Below are positions 1,371 through 20,000 of a stretch of 20,000 bases of DNA, one piece after another. The stretch lies in IMG/VR virus record IMGVR_UViG_3300025325_000017; one strand, written 5' to 3'. Origin of the DNA: an uncultured virus (IMG/VR IMGVR_UViG_3300025325_000017). Lineage: Duplodnaviria; Heunggongvirae; Uroviricota; Caudoviricetes. The position numbers and the translations under genes are program-made. Position 1 is the first letter of the stretch; the number at the start of each line of letters is the position of its first letter. The notes under the pieces were generated by a model. It saw only the letters and a list, made by a program, of their open reading frames with translations. It ran no database searches and was not told the DNA's origin.

Positions 1371-1382
1371 GACAGTAAGTAA

Positions 1383-4003: not shown

Positions 4004-4028
4004 CACAACTTATTATAGGAGCTAAAAC

Positions 4029-4523: not shown

Positions 4524-4538
4524 TTGTTTAACTAACAA

Positions 4539-4570
4539 CCCCGCCTCGATAATGGGGCGGGGATTTTTTT
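4539..4570 (+). terminator. Rho-independent terminator
   Basis: CCCCGCCTC-loop-GGGGCGGGG stem followed by ATTTTTTT, after the coat/decoration genes. Confidence 0.8.
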
Positions 4571-4579
4571 GGGTGAAAA

Positions 4580-5382: not shown

Positions 5383-5391
5383 GGATCATAC

Positions 5392-5580
5392 ATGCCTATC
5401 AGAATGACACACCCGCGCCACGGCACTACCCATGCCGTCGGCGCAGAAGTGGACTGGAACAAAAAACATGGATGGGTTATTGATGAGGGGCCAAAAATAG
5501 TCTCCGAGGTTAAGGAGATTGAGGAGATTAAACCGATGAGACGCGGGCCCGGCCGTCCAAGGGCAGTCAAGGCGGAATAA
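5392..5580 (+). CDS. Small hypothetical protein with C-terminal RRGPGRPR (AT-hook-like) motif
   Basis: AAGGA RBS; basic C-terminal motif. Confidence 0.65.
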   Translation: MPIRMTHPRHGTTHAVGAEVDWNKKHGWVIDEGPKIVSEVKEIEEIKPMRRGPGRPRAVKAE

Positions 5581-5583
5581 ACG

Positions 5584-6300: not shown

Positions 6301-7706
6301 TGCCCATTGTCCCGCTTTTTAGAGCCAATCAAGAAGGAAAATCCGTTGTCTCCACGGCTCAGCGACATCTTAATTTATATGCCGAGATAGACCCGGATGC
6401 GGAAAAATCCAGATTGATTTTTCATGGTACTCCTGGATTGATTTTGAGGGCCGGGAGTTCGTTGGGGAATACGCCGATTCGAGGTTGGATTGCCGCCGGT
6501 GATTTATATTACCTTGTTCATCAAGGTACGTTTTACGAAGTCAATAATGCCGGAGCGAAAACATCAAGAGGCACTGTTAGCACCACTACCGGACGAGTGG
6601 ACTTGGCTTATAACGGTTCGGTTATTTTATTGACTACCGGAACCAATGGATACACATATACCGTCGCTACCACGACGTTCGCGCAAATCGTGGCGGCGGG
6701 ATTCCCGCAAATCGCAAAAACCTGTGCTTGGCTGGATGGGCAATTTATCGCCGATGACGGAGAATCTGATGAATTTTTCATCTCGGCGGATGGAGCGACT
6801 TGGAATGCGCTGGCTTTTGCCACCGCTGAATCAAATCCGGACGGAATAGTCCGGATCATTTCCGACAATGGTGAAATTCCTCTCTTTGGAAAAAGCACGA
6901 CGGAATTTTGGGCGAATGTCGGCGCGTCTGATTTCCCATTTCAACCCATTAAGGGGGCAACGCAGGAATTCGGACTGGTCGCCAGATGGTCGCTTGCAAA
7001 ATTCAATTCCGGTCTAATTGCCTTGATGAAATCCAAGCAAGGACAAGCGCATGTCATGTTTTTTCAAGGATATGCTCCCAAGGTTGTTTCGACTCAGGAA
7101 TTGGATTTTATAATAAATAATTATTCCGATGTCGCCGCCGCTACTGGGTATTCTTACATGCTGAACGGTCATCCGATGTACCAGCTCAATTTCCCGACCT
7201 CCGAAAAATCCTGGCTCTATGATGCATCCACCGGAATGTGGAGTGCATTGGAATATGGGCTTTCGGGAGACAGGCACCGTGGGGAAATGTGTTTGGATTA
7301 TTTGAATAAATCCCTGATCGCGGATTATGCCACGGGCGATATATATGAACTTAGTCCAGGTACATATACGGATAATGGCGTCGCCATCGCGCGGGAGATC
7401 ATTGGGCGGCATATTTTTAAGAACGGCGATCCCATGATCATAAATGAATTGTTTGTTGACATGGAAACCGGCGTGGGATTGGCGGCTGGACAGGGCGTGA
7501 ACCCCCAAGCCATGCTTCAAATAAGCCGCGATAACGGCCATACGTGGGGGAATGAACTTTGGACCTCCATCGGTGCTATTGGGAAATATCTAACCAGGGT
7601 CGTATGGAGACGGCTGGGACTTGGAAGTGATTGGTTGTTCAAGATACGGATAACCGATCCGATCAAGGTGGTAATTACATACGCGGCGATGAAGGTATCC
7701 GGATGA
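6300..7706 (+). CDS. Tail hub / DNA stabilisation protein, P22 gp10-like
   Basis: 468 aa; 'TPGL', 'AESNPDGIV', 'SRDNGHTW...GKYLTRVVWRRLG' motifs; synteny. Confidence 0.85.
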   Translation: MPIVPLFRANQEGKSVVSTAQRHLNLYAEIDPDAEKSRLIFHGTPGLILRAGSSLGNTPIRGWIAAGDLYYLVHQGTFYEVNNAGAKTSRGTVSTTTGRVDLAYNGSVILLTTGTNGYTYTVATTTFAQIVAAGFPQIAKTCAWLDGQFIADDGESDEFFISADGATWNALAFATAESNPDGIVRIISDNGEIPLFGKSTTEFWANVGASDFPFQPIKGATQEFGLVARWSLAKFNSGLIALMKSKQGQAHVMFFQGYAPKVVSTQELDFIINNYSDVAAATGYSYMLNGHPMYQLNFPTSEKSWLYDASTGMWSALEYGLSGDRHRGEMCLDYLNKSLIADYATGDIYELSPGTYTDNGVAIAREIIGRHIFKNGDPMIINELFVDMETGVGLAAGQGVNPQAMLQISRDNGHTWGNELWTSIGAIGKYLTRVVWRRLGLGSDWLFKIRITDPIKVVITYAAMKVSG

Positions 7707-8077
7707 CCATCAATGCCCCCCCCCTTGCGAGTCAGATTTCGACGAGGAAAGAAACGGTGATATGGCCGAGGCCCTGGGGGAATTGGATGACACAGGTATT
7801 TTTGGCCCTGTTTGGGTGGACCAGGACTTATACCGGCGTCCTGACTTATGATTTTGGGTCAATAGCGGCACAATCCCAGGCGACCACCACGGCGACGATC
7901 ACTGGCGTAAGATCGGGAGACGCTTTGATCGTAAGACCGGCCACGGCGGTAAACGGGGTCATTCTGGATGGATCCGTGACGGCTGATGATGTCGTGACGA
8001 TTAGGGCGGTGAACTATAGTATCGGCGCGGTTGACCCTGGATCGCAAAATTATCGAATCATCGTTTTTCAACAATGA
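7703..8077 (+). CDS. Hypothetical tail protein (in gp26 position, 124 aa)
   Basis: ATGA overlap with the gp10-like gene (start reassigned to 7703). Confidence 0.6.
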   Translation: MTINAPPLASQISTRKETVIWPRPWGNWMTQVFLALFGWTRTYTGVLTYDFGSIAAQSQATTTATITGVRSGDALIVRPATAVNGVILDGSVTADDVVTIRAVNYSIGAVDPGSQNYRIIVFQQ

Positions 8078-8083
8078 GGGGCT

Positions 8084-8131
8084 ATGGTTGAATTCATGTT
8101 GCTCGCCGCCCCGCGTTCCGGCACGACTTGG
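8084..8131 (+). pseudogene. Orphaned 5' fragment of the sulfotransferase-like gene (MVEFMLLAAPRSGTTW)
   Basis: GAGG RBS; 16 codons paralogous to MIEFMVLSAPRCGSTW at 8679-8726; in frame with the HNH ORF. Confidence 0.75.
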
Positions 8132-8137
8132 TATAAT
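8129..8137 (+). promoter_or_regulatory. Possible extended -10 promoter (TGGTATAAT) for HNH gene
   Basis: TGnTATAAT exactly at the insertion junction, about 27 bp upstream of the HNH ATG; no good -35. Confidence 0.4.
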
Positions 8138-8164
8138 AATGGCTTACTTTCTAAGGAGTGCGCC

Positions 8165-8686
8165 ATGAAAGATTACCAATGCAGCGTTTATGGATGCGAA
8201 AAGAACTCATCAAGATTAAAAATGTGCGATATGCATTACCGCAGGCTTAAACGACACGGGAATCCCGATATTGTTTTACAAGCTAAGGGGCTTTCTCTAA
8301 AGCAACGTTTTTATAATTCAGTAATAGTAAAAGATGGGTGTTGGGATTGGTCTAAAAAAATTAATAGCAATGGCTATGCAGCACTTTTTTTCGATGGGAA
8401 ATGGATGACAGGAAACAGAGCTTCTTGGATATTACACATAAGTAGTATTTTGCCTGGGATGCATGTTTTACATAAATGCGACAATAGAAAATGCACTAAT
8501 CCTGATCATCTTTTTTTGGGATCAAATAGTGAGAATGTTGCCGATAAGGTAAGCAAGGGAAGGCAATATAGAAAATATGCCAGTATGTGCTCCATAAATG
8601 GATGTGAAAATTCATCTAGAAAACTAGGTCTTTGCGTTTCTCATTACAATAAGCAATATCACGAAAATGTTAAAAAACATGATTGA
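8165..8686 (+). CDS. HNH homing endonuclease (Cys-rich, HNH_3-like)
   Basis: AAGGAG RBS before ATG 8165; 'CWDW', 'HVLHKCDNRKCTNPDHLFLGSNSENVAD' HNH motif; CSVYGC...CDMHY and CSINGC...CVSHY Zn modules; visibly AT-rich versus flanks. Confidence 0.9.
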   Translation: MKDYQCSVYGCEKNSSRLKMCDMHYRRLKRHGNPDIVLQAKGLSLKQRFYNSVIVKDGCWDWSKKINSNGYAALFFDGKWMTGNRASWILHISSILPGMHVLHKCDNRKCTNPDHLFLGSNSENVADKVSKGRQYRKYASMCSINGCENSSRKLGLCVSHYNKQYHENVKKHD

Positions 8687-9188
8687 ATTTATGGTATTGA
8701 GTGCGCCGAGATGCGGCAGTACATGGTGTGCTAACTGGTTGACTACGGACACAACCCTGTGTCTACACGACCCGTTGTTCACCAGACACTATACGGAATT
8801 GGATGAAATCCAGACAGAAAAACACCTTGGAATTTCTTGCACCGGGTTGGCTTTATTTCCGGAATGGGTGAATAAACATCCGGCGCGAAAAATCGTGCTG
8901 CATCGTGATATAAACGAAATCAACGAATCTCTCTCTGATCTGGGGTTCCCCGAAGTGGACATTGATTTTATCTTGAAACTGGAATCCATCGAAGCCATTC
9001 ATCTACCATGGACTGATTTATTTGATCGTCCTGATTTCATCCACGAAACACTTTTACAATTGCCATTCGATGCTGAACGGCATGCCCTGTTGAAGGAAAT
9101 TGAAATGCAACCGAAATTCGACAAACTTACCGTGAATCACGATGTAACGCGGCGATTCTTGAATAAGATCGCAACAGGAGGATGCTGA
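8679..9188 (+). CDS. Sulfotransferase-like / P-loop-fold protein
   Basis: N-terminal 'SAPRCGSTW' resembling the 5'-PSB PAPS-binding loop (PRSGTT), then 'LHDP' and 'IVLHRD'. Confidence 0.65.
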   Translation: MIEFMVLSAPRCGSTWCANWLTTDTTLCLHDPLFTRHYTELDEIQTEKHLGISCTGLALFPEWVNKHPARKIVLHRDINEINESLSDLGFPEVDIDFILKLESIEAIHLPWTDLFDRPDFIHETLLQLPFDAERHALLKEIEMQPKFDKLTVNHDVTRRFLNKIATGGC

Positions 9189-9189
9189 T

Positions 9190-10170
9190 ATGCCTTGGGG
9201 TTCATTGGTAGGAACAATCGTCGGCGGGATGATCGCGGGCGACGCCGCCGATGATGCTTCGTCGGCGATGACGGGCGCTTCCAAGGAAGCCATCGAGGAA
9301 CAAAGACGACAATACGACCAGACACAAGCGAATCTCGCCCCATGGTTGACTTCCGGACGGGCGGGCCTTACGCGAATGTCTCAACTTCTCGGTCTTCCTG
9401 GATTTTCCGCCAAGGATCAGGCTTTGACCGCCTTGGGTGGGGAGCCATCACGGGAATCGTTTACCAGCGCGGGAGGAGGAATTTCCCCCGAACATTGGAA
9501 TATTTTGGATCAAGCGGCAAAGGAAGAATATAACCGGCAGCACGGTCGCTTTATAATGAATTATGCCGCCCCAGATTATGAAAGAAAATTTGACCAAGCT
9601 GGATACGACGCGGCACTGAAGGACTGGAATTATAAAAGGACCGCTGCTGAGAGCCTTAAAGATGAAGCCGATTTCGGCGCACTGAACAAGAAATTCACCC
9701 TGGCGGATTTTTGGGATGATCCGATAACCAAGTCGTCTTATCAATCGGGATTGGACTTGGGAACCGAAGCCATTGATCGTATGACCGGAGCCAGGGGCAC
9801 GCGAAAATCCGGCGCGACGCTGAAAGAACTGTCACGATTCGGAACCGACTATACCGGACAGAAAGCCGGGGAATCCTATAATAGATTCTACGGCGATCAA
9901 GAAAGGACTTTGAATCGCTTGGCCGGCATCTCCGGCACTGGGCAGACAACCGGGCAATATCTTGGCGATACGGGCGGTCGTACCAGCGCAAACATCGGTA
10001 ATCTTTTGACTAATGCCGGTTCTGTCAGGGGCGCGGCGGCGATCCGACAAGGAAATATCTACGGCGGGATGGCGCAGAATATAGGAGATTGGTACACCCA
10101 AAAATCTTATAACGATGATGGTTCCCTCGATAGAAGCCAATCTTCAGCGACATCAACTTGGTATCCATAG
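9190..10170 (+). CDS. DNA ejection/pilot protein (P22 gp7-like)
   Basis: AGGAGG RBS; Gly/Ala hydrophobic N-terminus, 'AIEEQRRQYDQTQANLAPW', 'SGATLKELSRFG', 'NRLAGISGTGQ'. Confidence 0.75.
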   Translation: MPWGSLVGTIVGGMIAGDAADDASSAMTGASKEAIEEQRRQYDQTQANLAPWLTSGRAGLTRMSQLLGLPGFSAKDQALTALGGEPSRESFTSAGGGISPEHWNILDQAAKEEYNRQHGRFIMNYAAPDYERKFDQAGYDAALKDWNYKRTAAESLKDEADFGALNKKFTLADFWDDPITKSSYQSGLDLGTEAIDRMTGARGTRKSGATLKELSRFGTDYTGQKAGESYNRFYGDQERTLNRLAGISGTGQTTGQYLGDTGGRTSANIGNLLTNAGSVRGAAAIRQGNIYGGMAQNIGDWYTQKSYNDDGSLDRSQSSATSTWYP

Positions 10171-10179
10171 GAACTAGCC

Positions 10180-11163
10180 ATGCCACTTGATCCATCAATT
10201 TTTAATCAACTCGAAATGCCTCGGGCTCCATTGAACCCGATGGACCTGGAAAGAGACAGGCTGGCAAATACCGCCTTGCAACAGAAGTCGGTCGCCGGCT
10301 CACTTGCCCTTCATAGGGAGGCGCTTGTCAACGTAACTGATCCGACCCAAGCCGCCAAATGGATAAGGGACGGGTTCAATGATCGCAATCTAAGTCCTAT
10401 TCTGCAAAAAGCCGGCTCCCCGGAAGAAATAATTTCACGAATCCCTCAAGACCCGAAAGGATTCGCCGACTGGATAAAACGAAATGCCCTTGGGCTGGAA
10501 AAGTATTATGAATTGACAATGAAGCCTCAGAAATCTGGGTCATCTCCCATGCAACAAAGAAAATTCGATAAACAAATTTCTGATGATTTTAAATCAACGG
10601 GACAAGCGATGCAGACAATGGCGGAAATAACCAACGCCATAAAGACAGTCCGTGCATCCAAAGGATTATCGGCGAGAGAAGGTTATACCGGATATATTCC
10701 CTCCCTCCTTCAGGGCCCGGAAGCCATGAGCGCCCAAAATCGCATCGAAACACTCAAGGGGAAAGTTACCCAAATGGGGAAAGCCATGGCCACGATGTCC
10801 GGCGCAATAGGACCAATGGCGGTCCAAGAATGGAAAATCGTCGCTGATGCCATAAATGCAATAGACCCAACAGCGGGAAATTTGGAAGAACAACTTTCAA
10901 ATATAGAAGCACAAGCGATGGGCGCGTCGGAAAGAATAAAAGATTCGTATGACAGAACTTATGAAAATAAGTTCGAGAATTATCCGCAGTTTGAAACTGG
11001 GAATATAAGAATATATCCATCAACAACATCCCCTCGATCAAAACCAACGAATGTCCCCCTATCTCCAGCGCCAACGTCCCCGCCGCCTCAATCGCCTTCG
11101 CCGCCTCGTTACAGCAGAGAGCAAATCGAGGCTGAATTACGTCGCAGAAAGGTCATAAAATGA
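10180..11163 (+). CDS. Putative DNA ejection protein (gp20 position)
   Basis: 'MPLDPSI' start, helical composition, Pro-rich linker; synteny. Confidence 0.6.
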   Translation: MPLDPSIFNQLEMPRAPLNPMDLERDRLANTALQQKSVAGSLALHREALVNVTDPTQAAKWIRDGFNDRNLSPILQKAGSPEEIISRIPQDPKGFADWIKRNALGLEKYYELTMKPQKSGSSPMQQRKFDKQISDDFKSTGQAMQTMAEITNAIKTVRASKGLSAREGYTGYIPSLLQGPEAMSAQNRIETLKGKVTQMGKAMATMSGAIGPMAVQEWKIVADAINAIDPTAGNLEEQLSNIEAQAMGASERIKDSYDRTYENKFENYPQFETGNIRIYPSTTSPRSKPTNVPLSPAPTSPPPQSPSPPRYSREQIEAELRRRKVIK

Positions 11164-13193
11164 CCGACCTATCTTCCATGTCCACCAAGGACTTGATGAA
11201 GATGCGCGAGGAAGCATCGCTGACAGAGCTATCTTCCATGTCCACCGAGGACTTGATGAAGATGCGTCCCCAGATAACGTCATCTCAAGTCATGTCCCTT
11301 TTTAAGGGGGGGAAGCCGGTTGACGATTATCCTGTTCTGGCTTCCCCCATCGCTCGCGCGGGGTTGGGGGCTTATCAAGCCTTTATGGCCCCCATCCAAC
11401 TGGGGGCGAATGTAGGTGAAAAACTGGCTGATATATCCGGAGCTACCGATTTAAGTCGGCTGGTTAAAAAGAAGCTGGGCATACATACCGGCGGGAAGCC
11501 TCTTCTGAGCGCGGGGGGGCTTAATCAAACTTTAGGTGGATTGGAGGCCGCAAAACGCCAAGCCATGGCGGCAAGATCGGGAAGGCCGGTGGGAGAGGAA
11601 TGGGATATAGCCGGGCTTCTTGGTTCTTTGTATCCTGGAACGATGGCCTATAAAAGCATAGCCGGAGCTTTGCCTAAGGTCATTTCAGAACAAGCCCCTT
11701 CCCTGACAGGTCGCACTGTCGGGAGGATGCTTACGGGCGGCGGCACGGCGGCGCTTACTATCCCAGTAACTTCAGGTGGCGAGGATTTCTTTAATGAGAA
11801 AGGAATTCAGACCGGGATCGGCGCGGCTGTCCCCGTGGCGGCGTCTACACTAATTTCACTTCTCAAGGGGACGGGAAAGATCGGCGGTAAGATTTATTCG
11901 ACTTTGAGAGACGCCGCGCGTCTTCATACTAAGACAGGTCCGCAAAAAATAGCCGAAGCTCATTTCCAATCCATCGCCAAGGAAGGCGGAGAAGAAGCCA
12001 CGGGAAAGACGGTTAAATCACTGTTACAAGCAGAGAAGATATTAAATAAACCGACTTCTGCCGAGGCGATAGCGGCGGGGAATATCGGCAAGGGCGAAAG
12101 ATTCGGTGGACCGGTGGTGCGTTTGCAGGAAGAACTTGCAAGCCTGCCGGAGACAACCACCAAACTTCGTAGTATCGAGGCTGCACAAGAACAAATCCGA
12201 AAAGGTGCTATTGAGAATATCGCCAAGGGCACATCGGCGGAATCGGCGCTGCTAGAGCGCACAATTGCGGCGGCGAAGAATTACGACAAGGCGTTTTATA
12301 GAACTATAGATGGAAAGAAAATTCCTCATACGGCAACTCCAGACCGAGAATTGCAAACAATTTTCGATAAATTTGGAAACGATACGCCTAAAATTCTTGG
12401 TCGCGCCAAGGATTTGGCTGTCAAAGACGGCAAACAATTCAAAATTGGCGCGAAATATCCTATTGAATCTCTCCATTTTACAAAAATGGCGCTCGATGAC
12501 GTGATAAAAAATCCAGAACAATTCGGCATCGGCGCTTCCGAGGCCAGAGCCTTGGCAAGAACGCAAGGGGAACTTGTAAAATGGATTGGAGCCAAATCCA
12601 AGGCTTATGATTTTGCCCGGCAGGAACACAAGCGGCTTTCGGAGATTCTGAATCGCACTAAGGCCAGGGATACACTGGCGAATATTCTTACGGGGCCAAA
12701 AGGGGAAGAAAGAGCGACACAATTCTTGAATGCTACCAGAGATATTCCGAAGACTTTCAAGAAAGCAACGGGATCGCAACGATACGCGAAATTGGAAGAT
12801 ATTTTATTGCCGAATGAAACGATGCTGGTCAATAAAGTAACCCGTGAATTGGAAAGAGAAGCCATGGCAGGGAGAATGGCGAAGGAAGTTAATCTTCCAG
12901 GCGCAGTCAACCCAGTAACGGGGAAAATGGAAAGTTTGCCGCAGATGTTGTGGACCCCAAATATGATTGCAAAATGGGTCATGCGAATCAGCGGCAGGGA
13001 AGGCGATAAGGAAGTAAACAAAATTGCCGCTGACATCGCCGCCAATCCATCTCGCGCGGCCGAAGTAATCAGCAGGCTTCCTTCCAGATTGCAAACTATG
13101 GGCAAAAATCTTTTATCCGATTTGGATGAATTCCTGAAAACCGAAATAGCAAAAACCGCCGCCATTCAGGGCACGAACAGATTGAGAGAATAG
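11160..13193 (+). CDS. Putative DNA ejection protein (gp16 position, 677 aa)
   Basis: ATGA overlap; long A/G/K-rich helical protein; synteny before tail fibre. Confidence 0.6.
   Translation: MTDLSSMSTKDLMKMREEASLTELSSMSTEDLMKMRPQITSSQVMSLFKGGKPVDDYPVLASPIARAGLGAYQAFMAPIQLGANVGEKLADISGATDLSRLVKKKLGIHTGGKPLLSAGGLNQTLGGLEAAKRQAMAARSGRPVGEEWDIAGLLGSLYPGTMAYKSIAGALPKVISEQAPSLTGRTVGRMLTGGGTAALTIPVTSGGEDFFNEKGIQTGIGAAVPVAASTLISLLKGTGKIGGKIYSTLRDAARLHTKTGPQKIAEAHFQSIAKEGGEEATGKTVKSLLQAEKILNKPTSAEAIAAGNIGKGERFGGPVVRLQEELASLPETTTKLRSIEAAQEQIRKGAIENIAKGTSAESALLERTIAAAKNYDKAFYRTIDGKKIPHTATPDRELQTIFDKFGNDTPKILGRAKDLAVKDGKQFKIGAKYPIESLHFTKMALDDVIKNPEQFGIGASEARALARTQGELVKWIGAKSKAYDFARQEHKRLSEILNRTKARDTLANILTGPKGEERATQFLNATRDIPKTFKKATGSQRYAKLEDILLPNETMLVNKVTRELEREAMAGRMAKEVNLPGAVNPVTGKMESLPQMLWTPNMIAKWVMRISGREGDKEVNKIAADIAANPSRAAEVISRLPSRLQTMGKNLLSDLDEFLKTEIAKTAAIQGTNRLRE
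11161..11266 (+). repeat. Tandem near-identical ~46-bp repeat, 60-bp period (TDLSSMSTKDLMKMR / TELSSMSTEDLMKMR)
   Basis: ctatcttccatgtccacc(a/g)aggacttgatgaagatgcg occurs twice. Confidence 0.9.
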
Positions 13194-13201
13194 GATAAAA
13201 C

Positions 13202-14605
13202 ATGGCCGTCAAATTATTATTCAACGACATCCCGGCATTTTTCGATTCCAACGGCGACCCGCTCAACGGCGGTAAGTTGTTCACCTATGCCGCCGGTTCC
13301 AGCACCAAACAAAATACTTATACGACTTCCGCTGGAACAGTCGCACACGCCAATCCCATTATTCTCAATTCCAGGGGAGAACCCGCCAATGCGATATGGG
13401 GAACAGTTGGAATATCTTATAAATTAGTCTTATCTCCATCCACCGATTCCGATCCTCCCGCCGCGTCTTTCTGGACCATAGATAATATCACGCCGATAAA
13501 TGACGCCAATACACTGCTGGATCAATGGTTGACTGGGCCATCTCCGACATATATCAATGCCACGCAATTCACCCTGGTCGGAGATCAGACAACAACATTT
13601 CACGTTGGGCGCAGATTAAAAACGACTAACACCGGCGGATCAATTTATAGCACGATCACAACCACGGCTTACACGACGTTGACTACGGTCACAGTAGTCA
13701 ACGATTCTGGGTCCTTGGATTCGGGATTAAGCGCGGTTAGTTATGGGCTTTTAACTGCTTCCGATGCGGCGGTTCCGTGGGCCAAAATCGCTTCTACTGG
13801 ATGGACTTTCATCAAGGCAGTTACCATGTCCGACGTAGTTACCATGTCCGGGAAGTCTATCATCGAGGCCAATGCTTCCATCGCCGCTCACGCCACGACC
13901 ATGAACCCGTGGAGTCTAGGTAACTATGTAACCGCTACCGGCACGGCTGTAACTTTCACCGATCTCGCCGATGCCCCGCAAGCCGGGGCCGAAGTCGAGA
14001 TATACATGAATGCCGCGCACACCTGGACGAATAACGCCAACCTTGAGGTGGATGGGAATGCCAATTACATAGCGACGGTGGGAGATAGGGTATTGCTCCG
14101 CGCCAAATCCACGACTGTAACCACCGTGCATCCTCGGAGAAAGGCCGGATCTGGCAAGCTCATTCAGCGCGTCGAGGCGACTCCGTATACGGCGTATACG
14201 ACCATAAACACAGCCATCCCGGGCGACGACACAATTCCGCAAAATACCGAAGGCGCCGAAATGCAGACGGTGTCCATCACACCGACGAACAGCAACAATC
14301 GCCTGGTCATCCGAGCTAGTTGTACATGCCTGAGTCACAGCGGCGCCGGAATGCTTCTAGGTGCGATATTCCAGGATGCCACGGCGGATGCCCTGGCCGT
14401 AGGGAATGTCCAATCGTCCGCTGTTGGCGCACCGATACAACTAGTGGTCACGCATGAAATGGCTGCAAACCAGATAACCGAAACGATGTTTAAATTCCGC
14501 CTGGGTCCGAACTCTGGTCAAATGTATGTAAACGGCAACAACACTGCGCGGCTCATGGGTGGCTTAAACAACGTCAGGTTTTTAGTCGAGGAAATTGCAA
14601 CGTGA
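13202..14605 (+). CDS. Tail fibre/tailspike with N-terminal head-binding-type domain
   Basis: 'FFDSNGDPLNGGKLFTYAAGSSTK...NPIILNSRGE' N-terminus typical of podovirus fibre anchors; Thr-rich modular body. Confidence 0.8.
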   Translation: MAVKLLFNDIPAFFDSNGDPLNGGKLFTYAAGSSTKQNTYTTSAGTVAHANPIILNSRGEPANAIWGTVGISYKLVLSPSTDSDPPAASFWTIDNITPINDANTLLDQWLTGPSPTYINATQFTLVGDQTTTFHVGRRLKTTNTGGSIYSTITTTAYTTLTTVTVVNDSGSLDSGLSAVSYGLLTASDAAVPWAKIASTGWTFIKAVTMSDVVTMSGKSIIEANASIAAHATTMNPWSLGNYVTATGTAVTFTDLADAPQAGAEVEIYMNAAHTWTNNANLEVDGNANYIATVGDRVLLRAKSTTVTTVHPRRKAGSGKLIQRVEATPYTAYTTINTAIPGDDTIPQNTEGAEMQTVSITPTNSNNRLVIRASCTCLSHSGAGMLLGAIFQDATADALAVGNVQSSAVGAPIQLVVTHEMAANQITETMFKFRLGPNSGQMYVNGNNTARLMGGLNNVRFLVEEIAT

Positions 14606-15093
14606 TGTCGCTAGGCTTTCTAAGCAACCATGCCGCTCTGCATGCACTCGGAGCCACGATAGTCACATCCACCGATTTTGAGACCAGTTATGCGCCGGAC
14701 AATCTGGACATTTCCGGTCTGGCCGCCGCCGTCCTCGCGGCGGCAAAGGCTTCTAAGAAGAAACAATTGCAAGCGGTTTATGATCTAAAGATGTCCTCCG
14801 GATTCACCTCCTCCGCCCTCGGTGCCGCATATATCTACGCCACCGACGATGACCGCAAGGCGATCCTGACCGCAGGAGCCTTGCGCGCGTTTCGGGGGTT
14901 GACACAGAATTATTATTGCACTGATGTCGCCACCGGAATCGGCGCCATTCGTGCTCATACTCCCGCGCAGATGCTCCAGGTGTTGGACAATGCCGAAGCC
15001 ATAGCGCAGGCGTATTTAAGCAGTCTGCTCGCTAAGACGGCGGCGGTGACAACGGCAGCGACCGAAGCAGAGATAAATGCTATTAGCTGGTGA
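14602..15093 (+). CDS. Tail fibre assembly/chaperone-like protein (DUF4376-like)
   Basis: Follows fibre gene; 'GFTSSALGAAYIY', 'HTPAQMLQV', C-terminal 'EINAISW'. Confidence 0.7.
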   Translation: MMSLGFLSNHAALHALGATIVTSTDFETSYAPDNLDISGLAAAVLAAAKASKKKQLQAVYDLKMSSGFTSSALGAAYIYATDDDRKAILTAGALRAFRGLTQNYYCTDVATGIGAIRAHTPAQMLQVLDNAEAIAQAYLSSLLAKTAAVTTAATEAEINAISW

Positions 15094-15115
15094 ACCGATT
15101 GAGGAGGAATGGTGG

Positions 15116-15412
15116 ATGAACCAGGAAGAAATCAAACGGCTGGCGGCGACGCTGGCACCACAAATCATCGCGTCCATCCGCGAATCAAAGCATGATTTCT
15201 GGATAGACCCGGAGAACCATTTCAGGGCGCACATCGTAATGGACCAATTCGCCGAGTGTCTTGACATGGAGACATTACAGACCTTGCGCGATCTACTCAA
15301 GGCGTATCGCAGGGGAAGAAAGCTATTCTTTGCGGCGTTCGTCGGGTTGATGATCGTCGGCGCGCTCGGACTGGTCGCTATCGCAATCGGAATGAAACCG
15401 CCATGGAAATGA
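15116..15412 (+). CDS. Putative holin/antiholin-like membrane protein (1 C-terminal TM)
   Basis: GAGGAGG RBS before ATG 15116; RRGRK followed by hydrophobic helix; precedes endolysin. Confidence 0.55.
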   Translation: MNQEEIKRLAATLAPQIIASIRESKHDFWIDPENHFRAHIVMDQFAECLDMETLQTLRDLLKAYRRGRKLFFAAFVGLMIVGALGLVAIAIGMKPPWK

Positions 15413-15876
15413 ACAAATTCGATAGGGCAATCGATCTTATTTTGGCCGAGGAAGGAGGATATGTAATAGATCCGCTTGATCCTGGCGGAGAAACAAAATA
15501 TGGAATTTCCAAACGCGCGTATCCTGAAATCAACATCGGCAGCCTGACTTTGGATCAGGCGAAGACTATCTACATGCGCGATTATTGGGAGCCATGTAAG
15601 TGCGACAGTCTGCCTTGGCCATTGTCCTTATTTGTTTTCGATGCCGCTGTCAATCAAGGAACTGACGCGGCGATCAAGATGCTGCAACATACGCTACAGA
15701 CCAATCAAGACGGCATTATCGGTTCCGTGACTTTAAGGCTCGCCGGGGAATCTCGGAAATGGCACTGGGCGCGCTTCATGGCCTTCCGAACCATGAGGTA
15801 TCAAGGCACCCGCAACTATGATCGTTTCGGTGAAAACTGGTTGATCCGTATATTCCGGATCGCTATGGAGGCCTAG
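15403..15876 (+). CDS. Endolysin, glycoside hydrolase family 108
   Basis: 'EEGGYVIDPLDPGGETKYGIS' and 'FDAAVNQG' GH108 motifs; 'DGIIGSVT' peptidoglycan-binding-like segment. Confidence 0.9.
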   Translation: MEMNKFDRAIDLILAEEGGYVIDPLDPGGETKYGISKRAYPEINIGSLTLDQAKTIYMRDYWEPCKCDSLPWPLSLFVFDAAVNQGTDAAIKMLQHTLQTNQDGIIGSVTLRLAGESRKWHWARFMAFRTMRYQGTRNYDRFGENWLIRIFRIAMEA

Positions 15877-15877
15877 G

Positions 15878-16255
15878 ATGGAAACTATTCTCGCGTCACT
15901 TGTCGCCCCCGCTGCTGTTGATATGCTCAAAAATCTATTCGCGTCAGCTTCCCGCAAATGGATCGGGTTATCGGTGGACGATCAGATCAAATTAGAGAAC
16001 GCTAATATAGAGAGGCTGAAAGCCCTGGCGCTGTTGGATAATCCCAACGGAACACCTTCTCAATGGGTTATAAACCTCCGTGGGGCCTCCAGGTACGTCG
16101 CAGTCATCCTGTCCGTGGGGGTAGGGGCGGGGATGATGTTAAAGGCCACCACGCCCGAACTGGAGGTCTTGGGCTTTGAGCTTGTCGCCATGCCTGTCAG
16201 CTTCCTTTTCGGCGAAAGAATGTATCTTGGATTCAAAGGTAACATGGCTAAATGA
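15878..16255 (+). CDS. Putative holin (3TM holin-like)
   Basis: GGAGG RBS; 'PSQWVINLRGASRY', two hydrophobic segments and 'FLFGER'; adjacent to endolysin. Confidence 0.65.
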   Translation: METILASLVAPAAVDMLKNLFASASRKWIGLSVDDQIKLENANIERLKALALLDNPNGTPSQWVINLRGASRYVAVILSVGVGAGMMLKATTPELEVLGFELVAMPVSFLFGERMYLGFKGNMAK

Positions 16256-16275
16256 AATCTATCCTGCGATAGGTG

Positions 16276-16303
16276 GAATTCTGTCTAATACACTGTGTTA
16301 TAC
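16276..16303 (+). other. attI-like site 1 (GTCTAAT-ACACTGT-GTTATAC); 21-bp direct repeat with 19500-19520
   Basis: GAATTCTGTCTAATACACTGT identical to 19500-19520; lies at the left boundary of the array; 2 extra nt (GT) before the GTT core. Confidence 0.65.
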
Positions 16304-16462
16304 GGCAATGTTTTTACGGCACTGGTCCCATGCCAGAGCAGGGGTTTTCCCCCAGGCAAGGAGCGTTGCCGGTCCTTCTTCCCAAATGTGGTAACCACCC
16401 CATGTTGCCCGACAACAAAAGGCTCTCGGTATTATATTCAGTACAAACTGTTTCGCGGTCAT
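16298..16462 (-). CDS. Cassette ORF, hypothetical (54 aa, MTAKQFVLNIIP...KNIAV)
   Basis: GAGGA RBS; stop TAA is the TTA of the GTTA core. Confidence 0.65.
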   Translation of the reverse strand: MTAKQFVLNIIPRAFCCRATWGGYHIWEEGPATLLAWGKTPALAWDQCRKNIAV

Positions 16463-16474
16463 GTTGTGGTCCTC

Positions 16475-16535
16475 GTGTAACAAGTCATTCCAGCCGATCC
16501 TCGCTACGCTCGGGCGGCTGAATTCCGGCTTATAC
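16475..16535 (+). repeat. attC-like site (R' lacks the G: C-TTATAC)
   Basis: GTGTAAC-AAGTC-ATTCCAGCCG...CGGCTGAAT-TCCGGC-TTATAC; extra C in L''; CTCGCTACGCTCG loop. Confidence 0.8.
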
Positions 16536-17192
16536 GTTGCGCTCGCAATCATCGTTTTTGCGGCAAATTATCCAGAAGCAATGACGCTTCCGGGCGTGGT
16601 GCGCGGTTTTCCATTTCGTTGAAACCATCGGCCCTTTCCTGATTTTTACAATCAGATCGCAGACCGTGAAACCCGCTTCCTCGGCCATCCGCATAAAATC
16701 AGCGTGCGGCCATTTCGATTTGTGGTTGTTCACCATGTCGGTGATTTTGGCGAGCAGCAAGCCGTTCGGCTTTAATACGCGCATGGCCTGTTTTAAGAAC
16801 GGCGGATAGAGATAACTCAGGTTCCAATCCTGGTCGACCCCGCATTCCATTGTCGCGCCGAAGTCCACGTCGAAACGCTTTTTGCTTTTGTCCCGCCCTT
16901 GCGGGCCGACATGGGGCGGATCGAATATTACCGCACCATACGTCGCTGCCTTGACGCCATTCATTACTCGATTGTCGCCAACAATCATTGGTTTGTATCG
17001 CGGGTCAATGTCCATCGACACCACTTTTCGCTTTGAGCCTTTCCACATGCGCCCGGCGTTGTAGGTTGAATCAAGAATCGGCTCGGGTGGGATTGTCGGG
17101 TAGAACTTGAACATCGCTTCCAGCAAATCGGAATCGTTTCCTTCCCACACGCTGCTAATCGGAGCGTAAAGGAATGGTGCGAGGTCAGTCAC
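16530..17192 (-). CDS. DNA amino-methyltransferase (N6A/N4C type)
   Basis: Motif I-like 'ILDSTYNAGRMW', motif IV-like 'FDPPH', 'AMRVLKPNGLL'; GTGA overlap with upstream ORF; stop in attC core. Confidence 0.8.
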   Translation of the reverse strand: MTDLAPFLYAPISSVWEGNDSDLLEAMFKFYPTIPPEPILDSTYNAGRMWKGSKRKVVSMDIDPRYKPMIVGDNRVMNGVKAATYGAVIFDPPHVGPQGRDKSKKRFDVDFGATMECGVDQDWNLSYLYPPFLKQAMRVLKPNGLLLAKITDMVNNHKSKWPHADFMRMAEEAGFTVCDLIVKIRKGPMVSTKWKTAHHARKRHCFWIICRKNDDCERNV

Positions 17193-17374
17193 GGGCGAAT
17201 TCCAAATGAGTCACGAAAAATACCAGTACATGCACAACAAAACCAAGTATGCCCGTTGTCCCGGCTATAGTGCCAAACATCATGCTGGCAAACGCGGCAG
17301 TAGGAAGTCCGACTCATAACAACTGGCTGGAACCGACGCCGGAGACAGCGCAGCATGTTTCCTGTAGCGTTCAT
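17189..17374 (-). CDS. Small Cys-rich (CxxC...CxxC) putative zinc-ribbon protein; start uncertain (17374, 17356 or 17317)
   Basis: CRVC...CCAC; ATGA and GTGA overlaps with both neighbours; N-terminus encoded through the attC. Confidence 0.55.
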   Translation of the reverse strand: MNATGNMLRCLRRRFQPVVMSRTSYCRVCQHDVWHYSRDNGHTWFCCACTGIFRDSFGIRP

Positions 17375-17404
17375 GGCCGGCGCGGTTCATCCATGGCGTT
17401 ATGG
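17314..17404 (+). repeat. attC-like site
   Basis: TCATAAC-AACTG-GCTGGAACCGACGCCGG...CCGGCGCGGTTCATCC-ATGGC-GTTATGG. Confidence 0.8.
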
Positions 17405-17643
17405 TGAACAACCGATGCCCAATGTACTGTGATGAAATTCTGTAAAAACTCAGAATCATCACCCATCGTCGGCCTTCCCTGTGATTTTGCCACGCTACGC
17501 GCAAGGTTCACGCAATCATGCACAGTCGCCCGCAGCGTAATATGTGCTGAAATATCGTTCCCCTCTGGGCCAGTAGCGGGCCAAGGCTCTCTCCACTCAA
17601 GTTCTGCGGTGTGCCTATTTTCTAGCAGATCGTCAATGTTCAT
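17371..17643 (-). CDS. Cassette ORF, hypothetical (90 aa)
   Basis: GGAGG RBS; reads through R'/L' of attC; ATGA coupling at both ends. Confidence 0.7.
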   Translation of the reverse strand: MNIDDLLENRHTAELEWREPWPATGPEGNDISAHITLRATVHDCVNLARSVAKSQGRPTMGDDSEFLQNFITVHWASVVHHNAMDEPRRP

Positions 17644-17828
17644 AGTTCCTCCGTGCGCTCGCCGGTTAAGGGCGCGTTAGGCAACGTATATTGATGATAG
17701 TATTTCCTTGTAAGCCTTTCGTATGTTTCAGCTCGTTCTTTATGAAGCCAAAAAGGATAAAGAAGTTCTGCTTCTTCCAAGGCTTTCTTCCTTGCCAGTT
17801 CCATCAACCCTACATAATCGAGTTCCAT
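17640..17828 (-). CDS. Cassette ORF, hypothetical (62 aa)
   Basis: AAGGAGG RBS; C-terminus PNAPLTGERTEEL encoded by the attC half site. Confidence 0.7.
   Translation of the reverse strand: MELDYVGLMELARKKALEEAELLYPFWLHKERAETYERLTRKYYHQYTLPNAPLTGERTEEL
17656..17682 (+). repeat. Right-half attC remnant (L'-R' only)
   Basis: CGCTCGCCGGTTAAG-GGCGC-GTTAGGC; GTTAGGCAA is the reverse complement of TTGCCTAAC at 17839-17847. Confidence 0.75.
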
Positions 17829-17924
17829 TCAACCTCCTTTGCCTAACAAGCGGTTCGAGATCGGACGGGCCTCGTCAGTGCCGTGTGCGGTTTCGTCGCC
17901 TTCTATTGGTTTCTCACCACTCAT
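17829..17924 (-). CDS. attC-encoded bridging mini-ORF (31 aa, MSGEKPIEGDETAHG...LLGKGG)
   Basis: GGAG RBS in attC loop; ATGA overlap with upstream stop; TGA abuts ATG of downstream gene. Confidence 0.45.
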   Translation of the reverse strand: MSGEKPIEGDETAHGTDEARPISNRLLGKGG

Positions 17925-17972
17925 GGTTTCTCATCTCCGTTATCGGCCCGCCGCTCAACCGCAGCGTTAGAT
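17841..17972 (+). repeat. attC-like site (132 bp)
   Basis: GCCTAAC-AAGC-GGTTCGAGATCGGACGGGCC...GGCCCGCCGCTCAACC-GCAGC-GTTAGAT; extra C in L''. Confidence 0.88.
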
Positions 17973-18178
17973 GGTGTAAACCCCATCTGTTCCGGCACCC
18001 CGACATAAGTCAGAAGCCGCACAGTTTCCTCACGCCACATAACAAAATAAAAATCATCCTGGCCGTGAAGCAACCCGATAAAAATATATTCGTTGCCTTC
18101 TTCGTCGAAATACTTGTTCCCTATTAAGGGCTCGTATTCTTTAACCAGATTTGTCCAATTATCATCTGCGTATGCCAT
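17921..18178 (-). CDS. Cassette ORF, hypothetical (85 aa)
   Basis: GAGG RBS and ATG overlap the R'' end of the attC; C-terminus SNAAVERRA encoded by the next attC arm. Confidence 0.75.
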   Translation of the reverse strand: MAYADDNWTNLVKEYEPLIGNKYFDEEGNEYIFIGLLHGQDDFYFVMWREETVRLLTYVGVPEQMGFTPSNAAVERRADNGDEKP

Positions 18179-18263
18179 CTAACCTCGCCTTGAACCGGAC
18201 GCGGGTTACGCCGCGCCGTTTCCTGTTGTTGAATCAGCCGCGCCGGTTATGGCGGCGTTATAC
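18177..18263 (+). repeat. attC-like site (87 bp)
   Basis: ATCTAAC-CTCG-CCTTGAACCGGACGCGG...CCGCGCCGGTTATGG-CGGC-GTTATAC. Confidence 0.88.
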
Positions 18264-18569
18264 GGCATCCCCTTTGTAGGTAAGGCTTAAGCCGCTCTGT
18301 CCGTCCGTACAGCACCATATCTGCGGTAGTTGCGGGTATGGTGTTCCGGTGTTTGGCGCTTCGACCCAACGCGGAACGTGTGATGTTTCAAGCGGCCACG
18401 GCGGGGAGCGATCACGCTCGATAATAATCGGAACGGAAGGAATGAACTTAGAACCGAAAAGCTCGTGTAGTTGATCGTGCAATTCCTTTGCTTCTTCAAT
18501 AGAAAGCTCAACCTTCTTGCCGTCTTTCGTCTCAAGTTCAATCTTCGTTAGTTTCAATTTCTTTGTCAT
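18258..18569 (-). CDS. Cassette ORF, hypothetical phage-type protein (103 aa)
   Basis: GGAG RBS; 'KKVELSIEEAKELHDQLHELFG'; stop TAA in the GTTA core. Confidence 0.75.
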   Translation of the reverse strand: MTKKLKLTKIELETKDGKKVELSIEEAKELHDQLHELFGSKFIPSVPIIIERDRSPPWPLETSHVPRWVEAPNTGTPYPQLPQIWCCTDGQSGLSLTYKGDAV

Positions 18570-18597
18570 GTCAGTCTCCGTTGTAGAAGAAAATGCC

Positions 18598-18654
18598 GTA
18601 TAACACGGCGCTCATGCCGACTCGCTACGCTCGCGGCATAGCTAGGCGTTGGGC
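18598..18654 (+). repeat. attC-like site (57 bp, canonical short type)
   Basis: GTATAAC-ACGGC-GCTCATGCCGAC-TCGCTACGCTC-GCGGCATAGC-TAGGC-GTTGGGC; two unpaired bases in the left arm. Confidence 0.92.
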
Positions 18655-18821
18655 GTCAAAATTTTTAGTGACAATTCCACTACGCATAAAGCACTTCCGA
18701 CTTGAGCAAGGCATCGAAATTTATTGTTTAGTGTTGGTGTTGGCTCACCGATCAAGAAAATTCCTGGCGAAATCTCTTTACCGTCCATTTTAGGCAATTC
18801 CAAATTACCAATAATCTCCAT
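18642..18821 (-). CDS. Cassette ORF, hypothetical (59 aa, MEIIGNLELPKMDGKEISPG...ILTPNA), not in ORF track
   Basis: Manual translation; AAGGA RBS; fills the cassette exactly. Confidence 0.7.
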   Translation of the reverse strand: MEIIGNLELPKMDGKEISPGIFLIGEPTPTLNNKFRCLAQVGSALCVVELSLKILTPNA

Positions 18822-18840
18822 GTCTATTTTCGTCCTTCAC

Positions 18841-18963
18841 GCCCAACCCGGCGCTCAACGCGGACGCTGCGCCAGCGGGCGTCTCGTCGGCTTGTGGTTT
18901 CTGGTCGTTCATCGCTTCGGCTCCTGTTCGTGGCGCGCAGCGCCGGTTAGCTCTACGTTAGAA
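18841..18963 (+). repeat. attC-like site (123 bp)
   Basis: GCCCAAC-CCGGC-GCTCAACGCGGACGCTGCGCCA...TGGCGCGCAGCGCCGGTTAGC-TCTAC-GTTAGAA. Confidence 0.9.
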
Positions 18964-19244
18964 CGCACACGCTCGCACATAGCCTCGTGCATGGCCTCGG
19001 CTTCTTCCCATGTCGTGCAACGGTCTTGCTCTTGATCGAGCTTACCGCCGAATATCATCGTTTCAAAAAGAAGCGGGGGGCCGTCACCGTATTGATGGTT
19101 GAGGCCAAGAAAAACCGTGCTCACTTCAACATCATCAATGGTCGTTTTACGAACTGCCCGGTCTGTTCTTTCAAACCTTCGTGCCCAAGTCATCAAGTCG
19201 GTTTTTACGGCCTTGTGTCCTTCAAGAATGTAGTGATCGCTCAT
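18909..19244 (-). CDS. Cassette ORF, hypothetical phage-type protein (111 aa)
   Basis: AAAGGAG RBS before ATG 19244; 'VSTVFLGLNH...GPPLLFETMIFGG' motif I recall from phage hypotheticals (unverified); C-terminus SNVELTGAAR from attC arm. Confidence 0.8.
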   Translation of the reverse strand: MSDHYILEGHKAVKTDLMTWARRFERTDRAVRKTTIDDVEVSTVFLGLNHQYGDGPPLLFETMIFGGKLDQEQDRCTTWEEAEAMHEAMCERVRSNVELTGAARHEQEPKR

Positions 19245-19257
19245 AAATTCTCCTTTG

Positions 19258-19440
19258 TTAATCCTTGGCCGCATTCCTGACCTGGATGTTAGTACTCAAT
19301 GCGCGAATATCTTTTGCAGTGCCTCGCTGCTCTACAATGCACGCAGATGCTTCGACAGCTGTATCGTATGCCTTGCGAGCTAGTACAATATCTGCATCGC
19401 AACCGTACTTGACACTTGAAATAAACTCTTCAAACTTCAT
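19258..19440 (-). CDS. Cassette-derived ORF, hypothetical (60 aa)
   Basis: GAGG RBS; C-terminus TNIQVRNAA encoded by a half attC. Confidence 0.65.
   Translation of the reverse strand: MKFEEFISSVKYGCDADIVLARKAYDTAVEASACIVEQRGTAKDIRALSTNIQVRNAAKD
19267..19294 (+). repeat. Probable right-half attC remnant
   Basis: GGCCGCATTCCTGACC-TGGAT-GTTAGTA, same L'-5 nt-R' spacing as other right arms; no matching left arm found. Confidence 0.5.
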
Positions 19441-19499
19441 CGTTATAACCTCATAAAGCCAGCCGGGATAGTCAGCGCGCCCCTAATCTTTCGTGGGCA

Positions 19500-19525
19500 G
19501 AATTCTGTCTAATACACTGTTAGCC
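19500..19525 (+). other. attI-like site 2 (GTCTAAT-ACACT-GTTAGCC)
   Basis: Inverse core, 5-nt spacer and GTT core like the attI1 simple site (CCCTAAA-ACAAA-GTTAGGC); GTTAGCCCTCT matches AGAGGGCTAAC of the next attC. Confidence 0.75.
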
Positions 19526-19666
19526 CTCTCGGGCCTTCGCTACACGCTCCAGGTATCGGCGCACTCGTTCCCAGTCTTTCGGGTGGACCCATACCTGCCG
19601 GAGCGTGTAGCCCTTGGCACGCATCCTTGCGCGCTCGTCCCGCTTCCGTTGGGCGGCATCCTTCAC
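19520..19666 (-). CDS. Small basic putative DNA-binding protein, RHH/antitoxin-like (48 aa, MKDAAQRKRDERARMRAKGYTLRQVWVHPKDWERVRRYLERVAKAREG), not in ORF track
   Basis: Manual translation; GTGA overlap with upstream ORF; stop in GTTA core; 'R.RMRAKG...QVWV.P' pattern resembles DUF3018/MazE-like proteins. Confidence 0.65.
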   Translation of the reverse strand: MKDAAQRKRDERARMRAKGYTLRQVWVHPKDWERVRRYLERVAKAREG

Positions 19667-19839
19667 GGATAAATCCACCTGTACACTTCTTCCCCGCCTT
19701 CATCTTGGTCGAAGCGCACTAACCAATACTCCCCGTCCCCGCACTTCACGTCTTCGGCTTCAAGCAGGGTTGCCGTTCCCTCGTACTTTATTTTCGTAAT
19801 TGGGTCTTCGTAAATTTCTAATCTGTCGTATGGTTTCAT
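19663..19839 (-). CDS. Hypothetical acidic protein (58 aa, MKPYDRLEIYEDPITK...YRWIYP), not in ORF track
   Basis: Manual translation; AGGAGG RBS; directly downstream of consensus promoter. Confidence 0.75.
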   Translation of the reverse strand: MKPYDRLEIYEDPITKIKYEGTATLLEAEDVKCGDGEYWLVRFDQDEGGEEVYRWIYP

Positions 19840-19877
19840 GCTTCCTCCTGTTGTCGTAGCTCGATTGCTACAGACAC

Positions 19878-19906
19878 ATTATAGCACGTGACATGTCACA
19901 TGTCAA
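19878..19906 (-). promoter_or_regulatory. Consensus sigma70 promoter TTGACA-N17-TATAAT with extended -10, overlapping palindromic operator GTGACATGTCAC
   Basis: Minus strand reads TTGACA TGTGACATGTCACGTGC TATAAT; perfect 12-bp palindrome at 19888-19899. Confidence 0.88.
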
Positions 19907-19909
19907 GAG

Positions 19910-19973
19910 GGCTAACACGGCGCTCCACCGGATCGCGCGCTACGGCGCGCTCCCGGTGAGCTTGGCGTTAGAG
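19910..19973 (+). repeat. attC-like site (64 bp)
   Basis: GGCTAAC-ACGGC-GCTCCACCGGA...CCGGTGAGC-TTGGC-GTTAGAG; extra C in L''. Confidence 0.92.
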
Positions 19974-20000
19974 CCCATGCGCAGTAGCTCCTTGCCACGC

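Follow-up and report, generated by a model that had tools for sequence, protein, structure and literature searches.

Why a phage should carry an array of integron-type recombination sites next to its lysis genes, and which integrase could act on it, are the questions raised by the right-hand end (positions 16,276 to 20,000) of a 20,000-nt stretch of DNA from an uncultured member of the Caudoviricetes (IMG/VR record IMGVR_UViG_3300025325_000017; this whole stretch is referred to here as the window). Downstream of a putative holin gene, small genes alternate with imperfect palindromes that resemble attC sites, and no integrase gene lies beside them. Here, we demonstrate the identity of these sites as attC and attI, their polarity, the absence of an integrase, and mosaicism among related phages at the level of cassettes with junctions at core sites. 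The reading that we consider probable is that integron cassette arrays are part of the early operons of an integrase-less P22-like phage and are recombined by a host integron integrase (IntI) acting in trans.

attC sites and their polarity

We searched the array with a covariance model, R1, that was trained on 16 bacterial attC sites and zero phage sequences. Between window positions 16200 and 20000, all seven full sites proposed in an initial annotation of the window (at 16475, 17314, 17841, 18177, 18598, 18841, and 19910) were matched on the + strand with 17.6–43.8 bits (E values from 3.5e-12 to 5.1e-4), and the sole minus-strand match was the mirror of 19910–19973 with 10.5 bits. When the filters were switched off and the window was searched together with contigs L003 and L004 (59,924 bases, or approximately 40 kb after removing overlap), 14 matches were obtained that represent nine distinct sites, all located in the array and none elsewhere. 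attC sites from class 1 integrons that were outside the R1 training set scored 12–41 bits on the cassette coding strand, which is the same range as the phage sites. A rule-based detector that is independent of the model and recovers seven of nine known attC sites gave eight matches in the 10.6-kb array region, compared with a mean of 0.235 (maximum two) in 200 dinucleotide shuffles, and two in the remaining 29 kb of the genome. The array also continues past the window end, as the annotation had anticipated, running for approximately 7 kb with four further sites (L003 8859–8945, 9119–9206, 9806–9857, and 10724–10781), so that the model supports 11 attC sites in this phage.

The anatomy of the sites agrees with the model. 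In real class 1 attC sites (aadA1 of R100 and those of four other plasmids) read on the coding strand, an inverse core ending in AAC is followed by a 5-nt spacer, 3 bp, an extra base that is usually C, approximately 6 bp, GAC, and a variable loop, and the right side consists of the complementary arm without the extra base, a 5–6-nt spacer, and GTTRRRY. The phage sites share this build exactly on the + strand of the window: an AAC inverse core and a GTT core bound the imperfect palindrome in seven of seven sites, and the extra C of the left arm lies on the + strand, matching the attC sites of aadA1, dfrA22, and aacA4 read on their coding strand. The bulged hairpin is visible in the folds of four of the seven (s1, s3, s5, and s7). 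Scores are highest for s7 (19910–19973; 43.8 bits, E value 3.5e-12) and s5 (18598–18654; 42.4 bits, 9.9e-12), the left 31 nt of which are 93.5% identical to an attC of the bacterial locus L076, followed by s1 (16475–16542; 35.8 bits, 1.1e-9), where the model ends at 16535 and the right core (R′) is CTTATAC, and s4 (18177–18263; 27.3 bits). The s2 site (17314–17404; 24.4 bits) belongs to an 87–91-nt attC family whose motifs are shared by sites in bacterial arrays headed by the same attI as the phage array, and long central loops characterize s3 (17841–17972; 23.2 bits, 9.1e-6) and the lowest-scoring s6 (18841–18963; 17.6 bits, 5.1e-4). Two half sites had been suggested in addition. The one near 17660 stands: 17656–17682 on the + strand is an attC right half of family D1 (L′, spacer, and R′ GTTAGGC) without a left half, and two full sites have right halves that align with 17656–17686; the one near 19270 was not confirmed.

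In all five adjacent pairs, a cassette starts with a core that is exactly complementary over 7 nt to the inverse core of the hairpin that follows (GTTAGGC/GCCTAAC, the latter being the inverse core of s3, GTTAGAT/ATCTAAC, GTTATAC/GTATAAC, GTTGGGC/GCCCAAC, and GTTAGCC/GGCTAAC), and the two cores within a single hairpin do not match each other. This pattern is the footprint of units that were formerly circular. By scores, build, and core pairing, the phage hairpins are genuine attC sites. Other ways of detecting them were less useful. An energy-only folding scan of AAC...GTT segments was dropped, as it returned approximately 115 candidates genome-wide without discrimination, and a first rule-based detector that demanded complementary core flanks gave two matches and was too strict because the cores of one hairpin stem from different cassettes. 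The phage sites were also aligned with MAFFT (A1 and A2), but these alignments lacked structural consistency, and therefore no model was built from phage sites.

Two observations concern individual hairpins. On the minus strand at 18595–18609, the end of the s5 inverse core and its flank form a terminator-like hairpin with a T-run. Moreover, one 58-nt attC recurs with 93–100% identity beside different genes in several phage strains (L003 9803–9860 and 10724–10781, L013 11916–11973, L037 3738–3795, and L007 10645–10702); in G001, a 39,924-bp viral record, this attC encodes the final eight codons and stop of the Mom gene, and its exact 26-nt core has no match in the genome contigs searched.

An attI-type repeat shared with bacterial integrons

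The annotation had noted a single attI-like site, next to the putative holin gene. We find that a 21-nt repeat in this site is present at 16276 and 19500 in the window, with a third copy at G001 8622. The first copy belongs to r1 (16268–16303, + strand), which consists of a box (GATAGGT), the 21-nt repeat, and the core GTTATAC. The second, r2 (19494–19524, + strand), lies within the array and has its core GTTAGCC at 19518–19524, and the third, r3 (L003 8622–8650), is located beyond the window together with a truncated fourth. The repeat is present in eight viral contigs, and the site has five different right-hand neighbours, each starting directly after ACACTG.

A 19-mer of the repeat that is common to r2 and r3 has 58 exact matches in bacterial loci (L044–L101). 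The carriers are mostly environmental Gammaproteobacteria (Thioalkalivibrio, Ectothiorhodospiraceae, Acidiferrobacterales, Thiotrichaceae, and others) and Desulfuromonas/Desulfobulbaceae, with one metagenome-assembled genome from Bacillota. Cultured bacteria are among the carriers (Gilvimarinus agarilyticus and Thioalkalivibrio). In 56 of the 58 loci the 12 bases following GTTA are distinct, and among 120 R1 matches in these loci (our own tally, 15 of them being R1 training sites) 117 lie downstream of the 19-mer in the same orientation, three upstream in the same orientation, and zero in the opposite one. In 10 loci (L045, L054, L059, L060, L064, L065, L073, L078, L081, and L087) a full-length, divergently oriented IntI that is 45–52% identical to IntI1 adjoins the site, and five of five integrases tested pass TIGR02249 with 424–470 bits (cut-off 265). 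From the distinct sequence after GTTA, the attC sites downstream, and the adjoining IntI in 10 loci, the phage repeat is the attI core of a widespread group of bacterial integrons. A literature search on the attI motif found nothing in the library searched.

In most of the other bacterial loci the array headed by the site directly borders housekeeping genes, and intI is absent within 10 kb, with the qualification that the left flank is too short to judge this in 8 of the 58. In the 12 intI-less loci with a checked left flank, the site mostly abuts ordinary genes of the chromosome (those for signal peptidase, HslUV, RF-1/PrmC, PFK, and HrpA). Several bacterial genomes contain two to three such loci, one of them with intI (e.g., L081 with intI, and L050 and L085 without), and the loci that lack the gene look like satellite arrays that have their own attI and are served in trans. 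In nine of the 10 loci with intI (those listed above other than L065), the integrase open reading frame (ORF) is 465–501 aa, and the IntI model covers only residue ~150 to the end; these long ORFs reflect either an N-terminal extension of ~140 aa or an intergenic region of ~550 nt. In 22 of the 58 bacterial sites a second copy of the binding-box motif lies 31–33 nt upstream; the two box copies appear to be merged in the phage attI. Short attI-type forms (AAT.TCTG..GTTAG) were also seen at other array starts (L007 ~10380–10395 and L003 ~11100–11117) and look as if the segment separating the full site's two CTG repeats had been lost.

As in a complete integron, then, an attI-type site heads the phage array; intI does not adjoin it. 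The annotation had seen no integrase beside the array, and this extends to the genome as a whole: a six-frame search of G001 with TIGR02249 identified no integron integrase at an E value of 10 or less, and a six-frame search with PF00589 identified no tyrosine recombinase at an E value of 1 or less in any of six related phage records, of which three are at least 95% complete and one is complete with terminal repeats. The array agrees with the definition of an attC cluster without an integron integrase (CALIN) as worded in the part of Cury et al. (2016, PMC4889954) considered here.

Reversed genes and exchanged cassettes in a phage genome

An aspect that the annotation had not recorded is the direction of the genes: the attC sites and attI copies are + oriented, with the cassette genes encoded on the minus strand, whereas 39 of 42 cassettes in bacterial arrays headed by this attI have their longest ORF on the attC top strand. 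Minus-strand coding is supported by homology for the methyltransferase and a CxxCxxCC protein in the cassettes as well as SLT and the exonuclease in the same operon, by the viral relatives of a 121-aa cassette protein described below, by codon scores, as all + strand rival ORFs are negative, and by base skews that change sign after ~16500. The other early operon is flipped as a whole: Mom and its neighbours are encoded on the + strand and their two attC sites score on the minus strand. The same reversed arrangement is present in the related records G002 and G003 and in G006, a complete phage that is unrelated; G006 (terminal repeats, 100% complete) has five attC sites, each of which is antisense to a homologous gene, and lacks an integrase. 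An ORF that is co-oriented with the attC top strand and contained in its cassette is a property of integron gene cassettes that the phage cassettes do not share. A model in which the minus strand is the top strand would keep every ORF inside its cassette; it was rejected because the strand preferred by R1, the polarity of the extra base, the polarity of attI, and the ends of a 397-nt cassette described below all disagree with it.

The cassette genes, all on the minus strand, begin with a DNA methyltransferase gene (16530–17192; phrog_24333, E value 9.1e-22; PF01555, 1.7e-4) that is antisense to the attC top strand. It is followed by ORFs of 90 aa (17371–17643; no family, codon score +0.03 bits per codon vs. 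−0.32 for its + strand rival), 62 aa (17640–17828; codon score +0.24, with a Shine-Dalgarno sequence 13 nt after s3), and 85 aa (17921–18178; +0.25). The final 15 codons of the last extend into s3, and it has an 80% DNA match in the relative L013 that begins at TTAGAT. The 103-aa ORF (18258–18569), whose stop codon is the TTA of the core GTTATAC, has a 55% relative in another viral contig, and two shorter ORFs encode 59 aa with a weak coding signal (18642–18821) and 60 aa (19258–19440). Between these two lies the gene for a 121-aa member of a widespread phage protein family (18909–19274; 256 viral relatives, codon score +0.13). At 77 of 78 other viral loci that encode homologues of this protein, no attC lies in the vicinity, which suggests that the conversion of ordinary phage genes into cassettes was confined to a few lineages. 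The DNA-modification cargo (N6/N4 methyltransferase and Mom) probably counters host restriction; the other cargo consists of small proteins.

One cassette (19520–19839) contains two small overlapping genes of 58 aa (19663–19839) and 52 aa (19520–19678), neither of which matches a Pfam family. Upstream, over a 12-nt palindrome, lies a candidate sigma-70 promoter (19878–19906, minus strand; TTGACA, 17 nt, TG-TATAAT with extended −10) that agrees with the consensus at 12 of 12 positions and is, as judged from this match, the cassette's own. The layout recalls the toxin–antitoxin cassettes of chromosomal integrons; a toxin–antitoxin reading has no family support. In L013 the first gene of this cassette is replaced and the promoter and second gene are retained.

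We also considered whether the hairpins serve the phage chiefly at the level of RNA or transcription, as terminators or as signals for processing or stability that are attC-like or were co-opted from attC, with a polarity set by RNA function. Polarity does track gene direction in both operons (+ among minus-strand genes, minus around the + strand Mom genes), and the sense strand of several loops carries the Shine-Dalgarno-like CAGGAAAC close to start codons. However, the hairpins have no following T-runs, terminator-like sites are no more frequent than expected (four found vs. 4.7), the same loop motif is present in bacterial attC sites whose genes lie on the other strand, and both the attI copies and the core-site junctions are left unexplained. 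This explanation is accordingly very improbable in our view.

The initial annotation had recommended comparing related phages at the core boundaries, and this comparison revealed whole-cassette differences. G001 (10721–11117) and L013 (11580–11976) share, with 99% identity, a 397-nt cassette composed of a 95-aa gene plus a 58-nt attC. It lies in opposite orientations and in different operons (inverted in the rightward operon of G001, and in the leftward array of L013), and its ends fall within GTTAGCG and GTTAGCC. At window position 19518, homology with L013 begins exactly at GTTAGCC, and leftward of it lie r2 here and a full attC in L013. The co-inherited unit is a gene with the attC on the gene's 5′ side, which fits the + strand polarity and not the opposite model. 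Related phages thus seem to have swapped whole cassettes, with sequence junctions inside the 7-nt core. The array of L013, which is a relative with an 83% identical holin, also contains a tRNA-Trp gene (10666–10741, minus strand) where this phage has cassettes. Apparent large inversions in two further records, L011 and L012, are explained as assembly chimeras, in which assembly paths join two phage strains, inverted, via the shared 397-nt cassette.

The array lies within a P22-like phage genome and not in host DNA. BLASTN comparison revealed that the window and G001 represent a single ~40-kb genome in circularly permuted form: 1–15996 and 16116–20000 of the window correspond with 100% identity to 23929–39924 and 1–3885 of G001, respectively, and G001 lacks the 119 bp corresponding to 15997–16115. 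A P22-like podovirus is evident from Pfam and PHROG matches to the portal (8.6e-159), the P22 coat (6e-25), and stabilisation and scaffold-like proteins, together with the GH108 endolysin, NinB, NinG, a Cro-like regulator, and Mom. Lysis genes flank the array to the left, and a Cro-like gene, Mom, NinB/NinG, and the portal gene lie to the right, beyond the window, where the annotation had advised looking for phage genes. The early operon with the array also encodes SLT, an exonuclease (phrog_298, 4e-13), and a neighbouring phrog_862 protein. The annotation had offered as an alternative that a prophage ends here, having integrated into a host integron attI; this is not supported because the two records are circularly permuted and phage genes lie on both sides. 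More broadly, the array could belong to a bacterial integron that became attached to the phage sequence through misassembly or where a prophage ends, and the chimeras L011 and L012 show that assemblies do err at these repeats. In addition to the permutation and the flanking genes, the presence of the r repeat in eight viral contigs, cassette genes that are reversed unlike those in bacterial arrays, and the terminal repeats and 100% completeness of G006 speak against such an origin, which is largely refuted and to which we assign almost no weight.

Probable recombination by a host integrase

The annotation had proposed that the phage carries accessory or early genes as cassettes for an integrase encoded elsewhere, and the attC model, the attI 19-mer, the lack of a recombinase, and the core junctions all support this. 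Each array begins with a compact copy of a bacterial integron attI (r1, r2, r3, and the truncated fourth), and rightward from the copy follow cassettes of the form TTRRRY, gene, attC, G. A host IntI would bind the folded attC strand, which is the minus strand of the window, and the double-stranded attI copies, and it would insert cassettes at r, excise them between attC sites, and reorder them at G/TT. By this means, cassettes could be traded between coinfecting phages. Phage early promoters, which run against the polarity of the array, would express the cassette genes, with one cassette having its own promoter.

Several points weigh against this reading. The action of a host IntI is what we infer, as neither recombination itself nor a host or its IntI came to light in this analysis. 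Some breakpoints are inside hairpin loops and not at G/TT (s4 compared with L013 and s2 compared with L037), which fits deletion or homologous exchange. Five of nine ORFs in the window overrun the G/TT boundary by 7–49 nt into the neighbouring attC, and therefore the cassettes are not cleanly self-contained in this orientation, as they would be in the opposite one. A TBLASTN comparison of 19 phage cassette proteins with the 58 bacterial loci returned no homologue for any of them. The phage attI is shortened, lacking ~33 nt that are found in 22 of 58 bacterial sites, and r1 has two extra bases before GTT, the crossover point, relative to r2 and r3. Finally, 15 of the 16 R1 training sites were chosen by our own detector, which requires the left-arm bulge, and therefore the strand preference of R1 is partly built in; this preference was validated by the class 1 controls and by the sense-strand genes in the 39 of 42 bacterial cassettes.

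These points bear on a further explanation, that the array is fossil integron DNA in which attC and attI are genuine by descent and are no longer recombined by IntI, the mosaicism being produced by the phage's own homologous or short-homology recombination. The exonuclease and the phrog_862 protein could be part of such a pathway, several breakpoints fall within hairpins, two junctions are accompanied by shared flanks of 5–15 nt, the five ORFs cross cassette boundaries, and IntI is absent from all phage records searched. However, the sequences left of GTTAGCC at 19518 are unrelated, so that the exchange there required no flanking homology, and the exact core complementarity in five of five pairs is the footprint of circular cassettes. 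Furthermore, the attI core is 100% identical in five contexts and the attC structures are intact, which argues for ongoing selection. We therefore regard the fossil explanation as unlikely and recombination by a host IntI as the better account.

IntI in bacteria is induced by the SOS response. A more specific version of the preferred account, which we advance only tentatively, is a "mirror integron" in which compact copies of the host attI are combined with phage-specific reversed cassettes and SOS-induced host IntI trades counter-defence genes during infection. The reversal may go back to cassette genesis, with attC sites inserted after phage stop codons making cassettes out of ordinary genes, an idea that is suggested because the reverse complement of TAA-C is the secondary target G/TTA. 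Alternatively, the reversal may ensure that, under heavy early transcription, the recombinogenic strand is the non-template one.

Integrase-less attC clusters in phages have precedents. In the parts of Qi et al. (2023, PMC9892861) considered here, 17 phage CALINs with a minimum of two attC sites each are described from virulent and temperate phages, five of six tested phage attC sites recombined with IntI1, DNA methyltransferases are among the cargo, and the action of host IntI in trans is proposed. Clusters of attC sites in phages without an integrase, methyltransferase cargo, and recombination of phage attC sites by IntI1 are thus already published, and the array described here resembles those CALINs in having attC sites and cassettes, no integrase, and methyltransferase cargo. 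That main text, as far as consulted, reports no attI in the integrase-less cases and does not mention reversed genes, whereas this phage has 11 model-supported attC sites, three attI copies, reversed genes, and arrays in both early operons. Relative to that portion of the paper, the attI copies in an integrase-less phage, the uniformly reversed cassettes, the conserved attI, and the extent of the array are new.

With the complete chromosomal integrons of environmental Gammaproteobacteria and Desulfobacterota, the phage shares the identical 19-mer ending in G/TTA, the polarity of the array relative to attI, and the attC family including the 87–91-nt type and the 31-nt match in L076; these integrons differ from the phage in having intI beside attI, a longer attI (with a second box in the 22 sites mentioned), and top-strand genes. 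The left arm of the class 1 attC of aadA1 on R100 is matched base for base (AAC, AATTC, 3 bp, extra C, AAGC.GAC), and the simple site of the class 1 attI has the same layout (CTAA.AC.A..GTTA) with 11 of 17 bases in common with r, although class 1 integrons have another attI sequence, resistance cargo read from Pc on the top strand, and an integrase. Small non-essential early genes that vary between close relatives are also typical of lambdoid and P22-like mosaics ("morons" and the nin/ea regions); those are explained by illegitimate or homologous exchange, whereas here the modules are bounded by known site-specific recombination sites.

Bacterial chromosomal integrons have lately been reported, in the portions of that work considered here, as banks of anti-phage defence cassettes. 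The phage would represent their counterpart, with DNA-modification and accessory genes in swappable units at a host-type attI and without the cost of an integrase. It is a concrete, testable example of a host recombination system put to use by a phage in shuffling its own genes and of cassette traffic in both directions between phages and bacteria, and its uniformly reversed genes may bear on how cassettes are made. In practical terms, the conserved 19-mer makes the attI of a large group of environmental integrons searchable, and the chimeras in L011 and L012 call for caution among users of those records.

The remaining features of the window concern its phage genes. The array region (16256–20000) has no BLASTN match among GenBank phages. 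To its left, the + strand lysis module consists of the endolysin gene (15403–15876; glycoside hydrolase 108, PF05838, 4.4e-25) and, directly after it, the putative holin or lysis protein gene (15878–16255; 125 aa, phrog_28107 of unknown function, 9.8e-39), which is the final + strand gene ahead of the array and has relatives in 22 viral loci. Farther to the left, an HNH homing-endonuclease-like gene at 8084–8686 (PF13392, 5e-8; PF05551, 9e-7) splits the tail/structural module in a region with a local GC content of 0.41.

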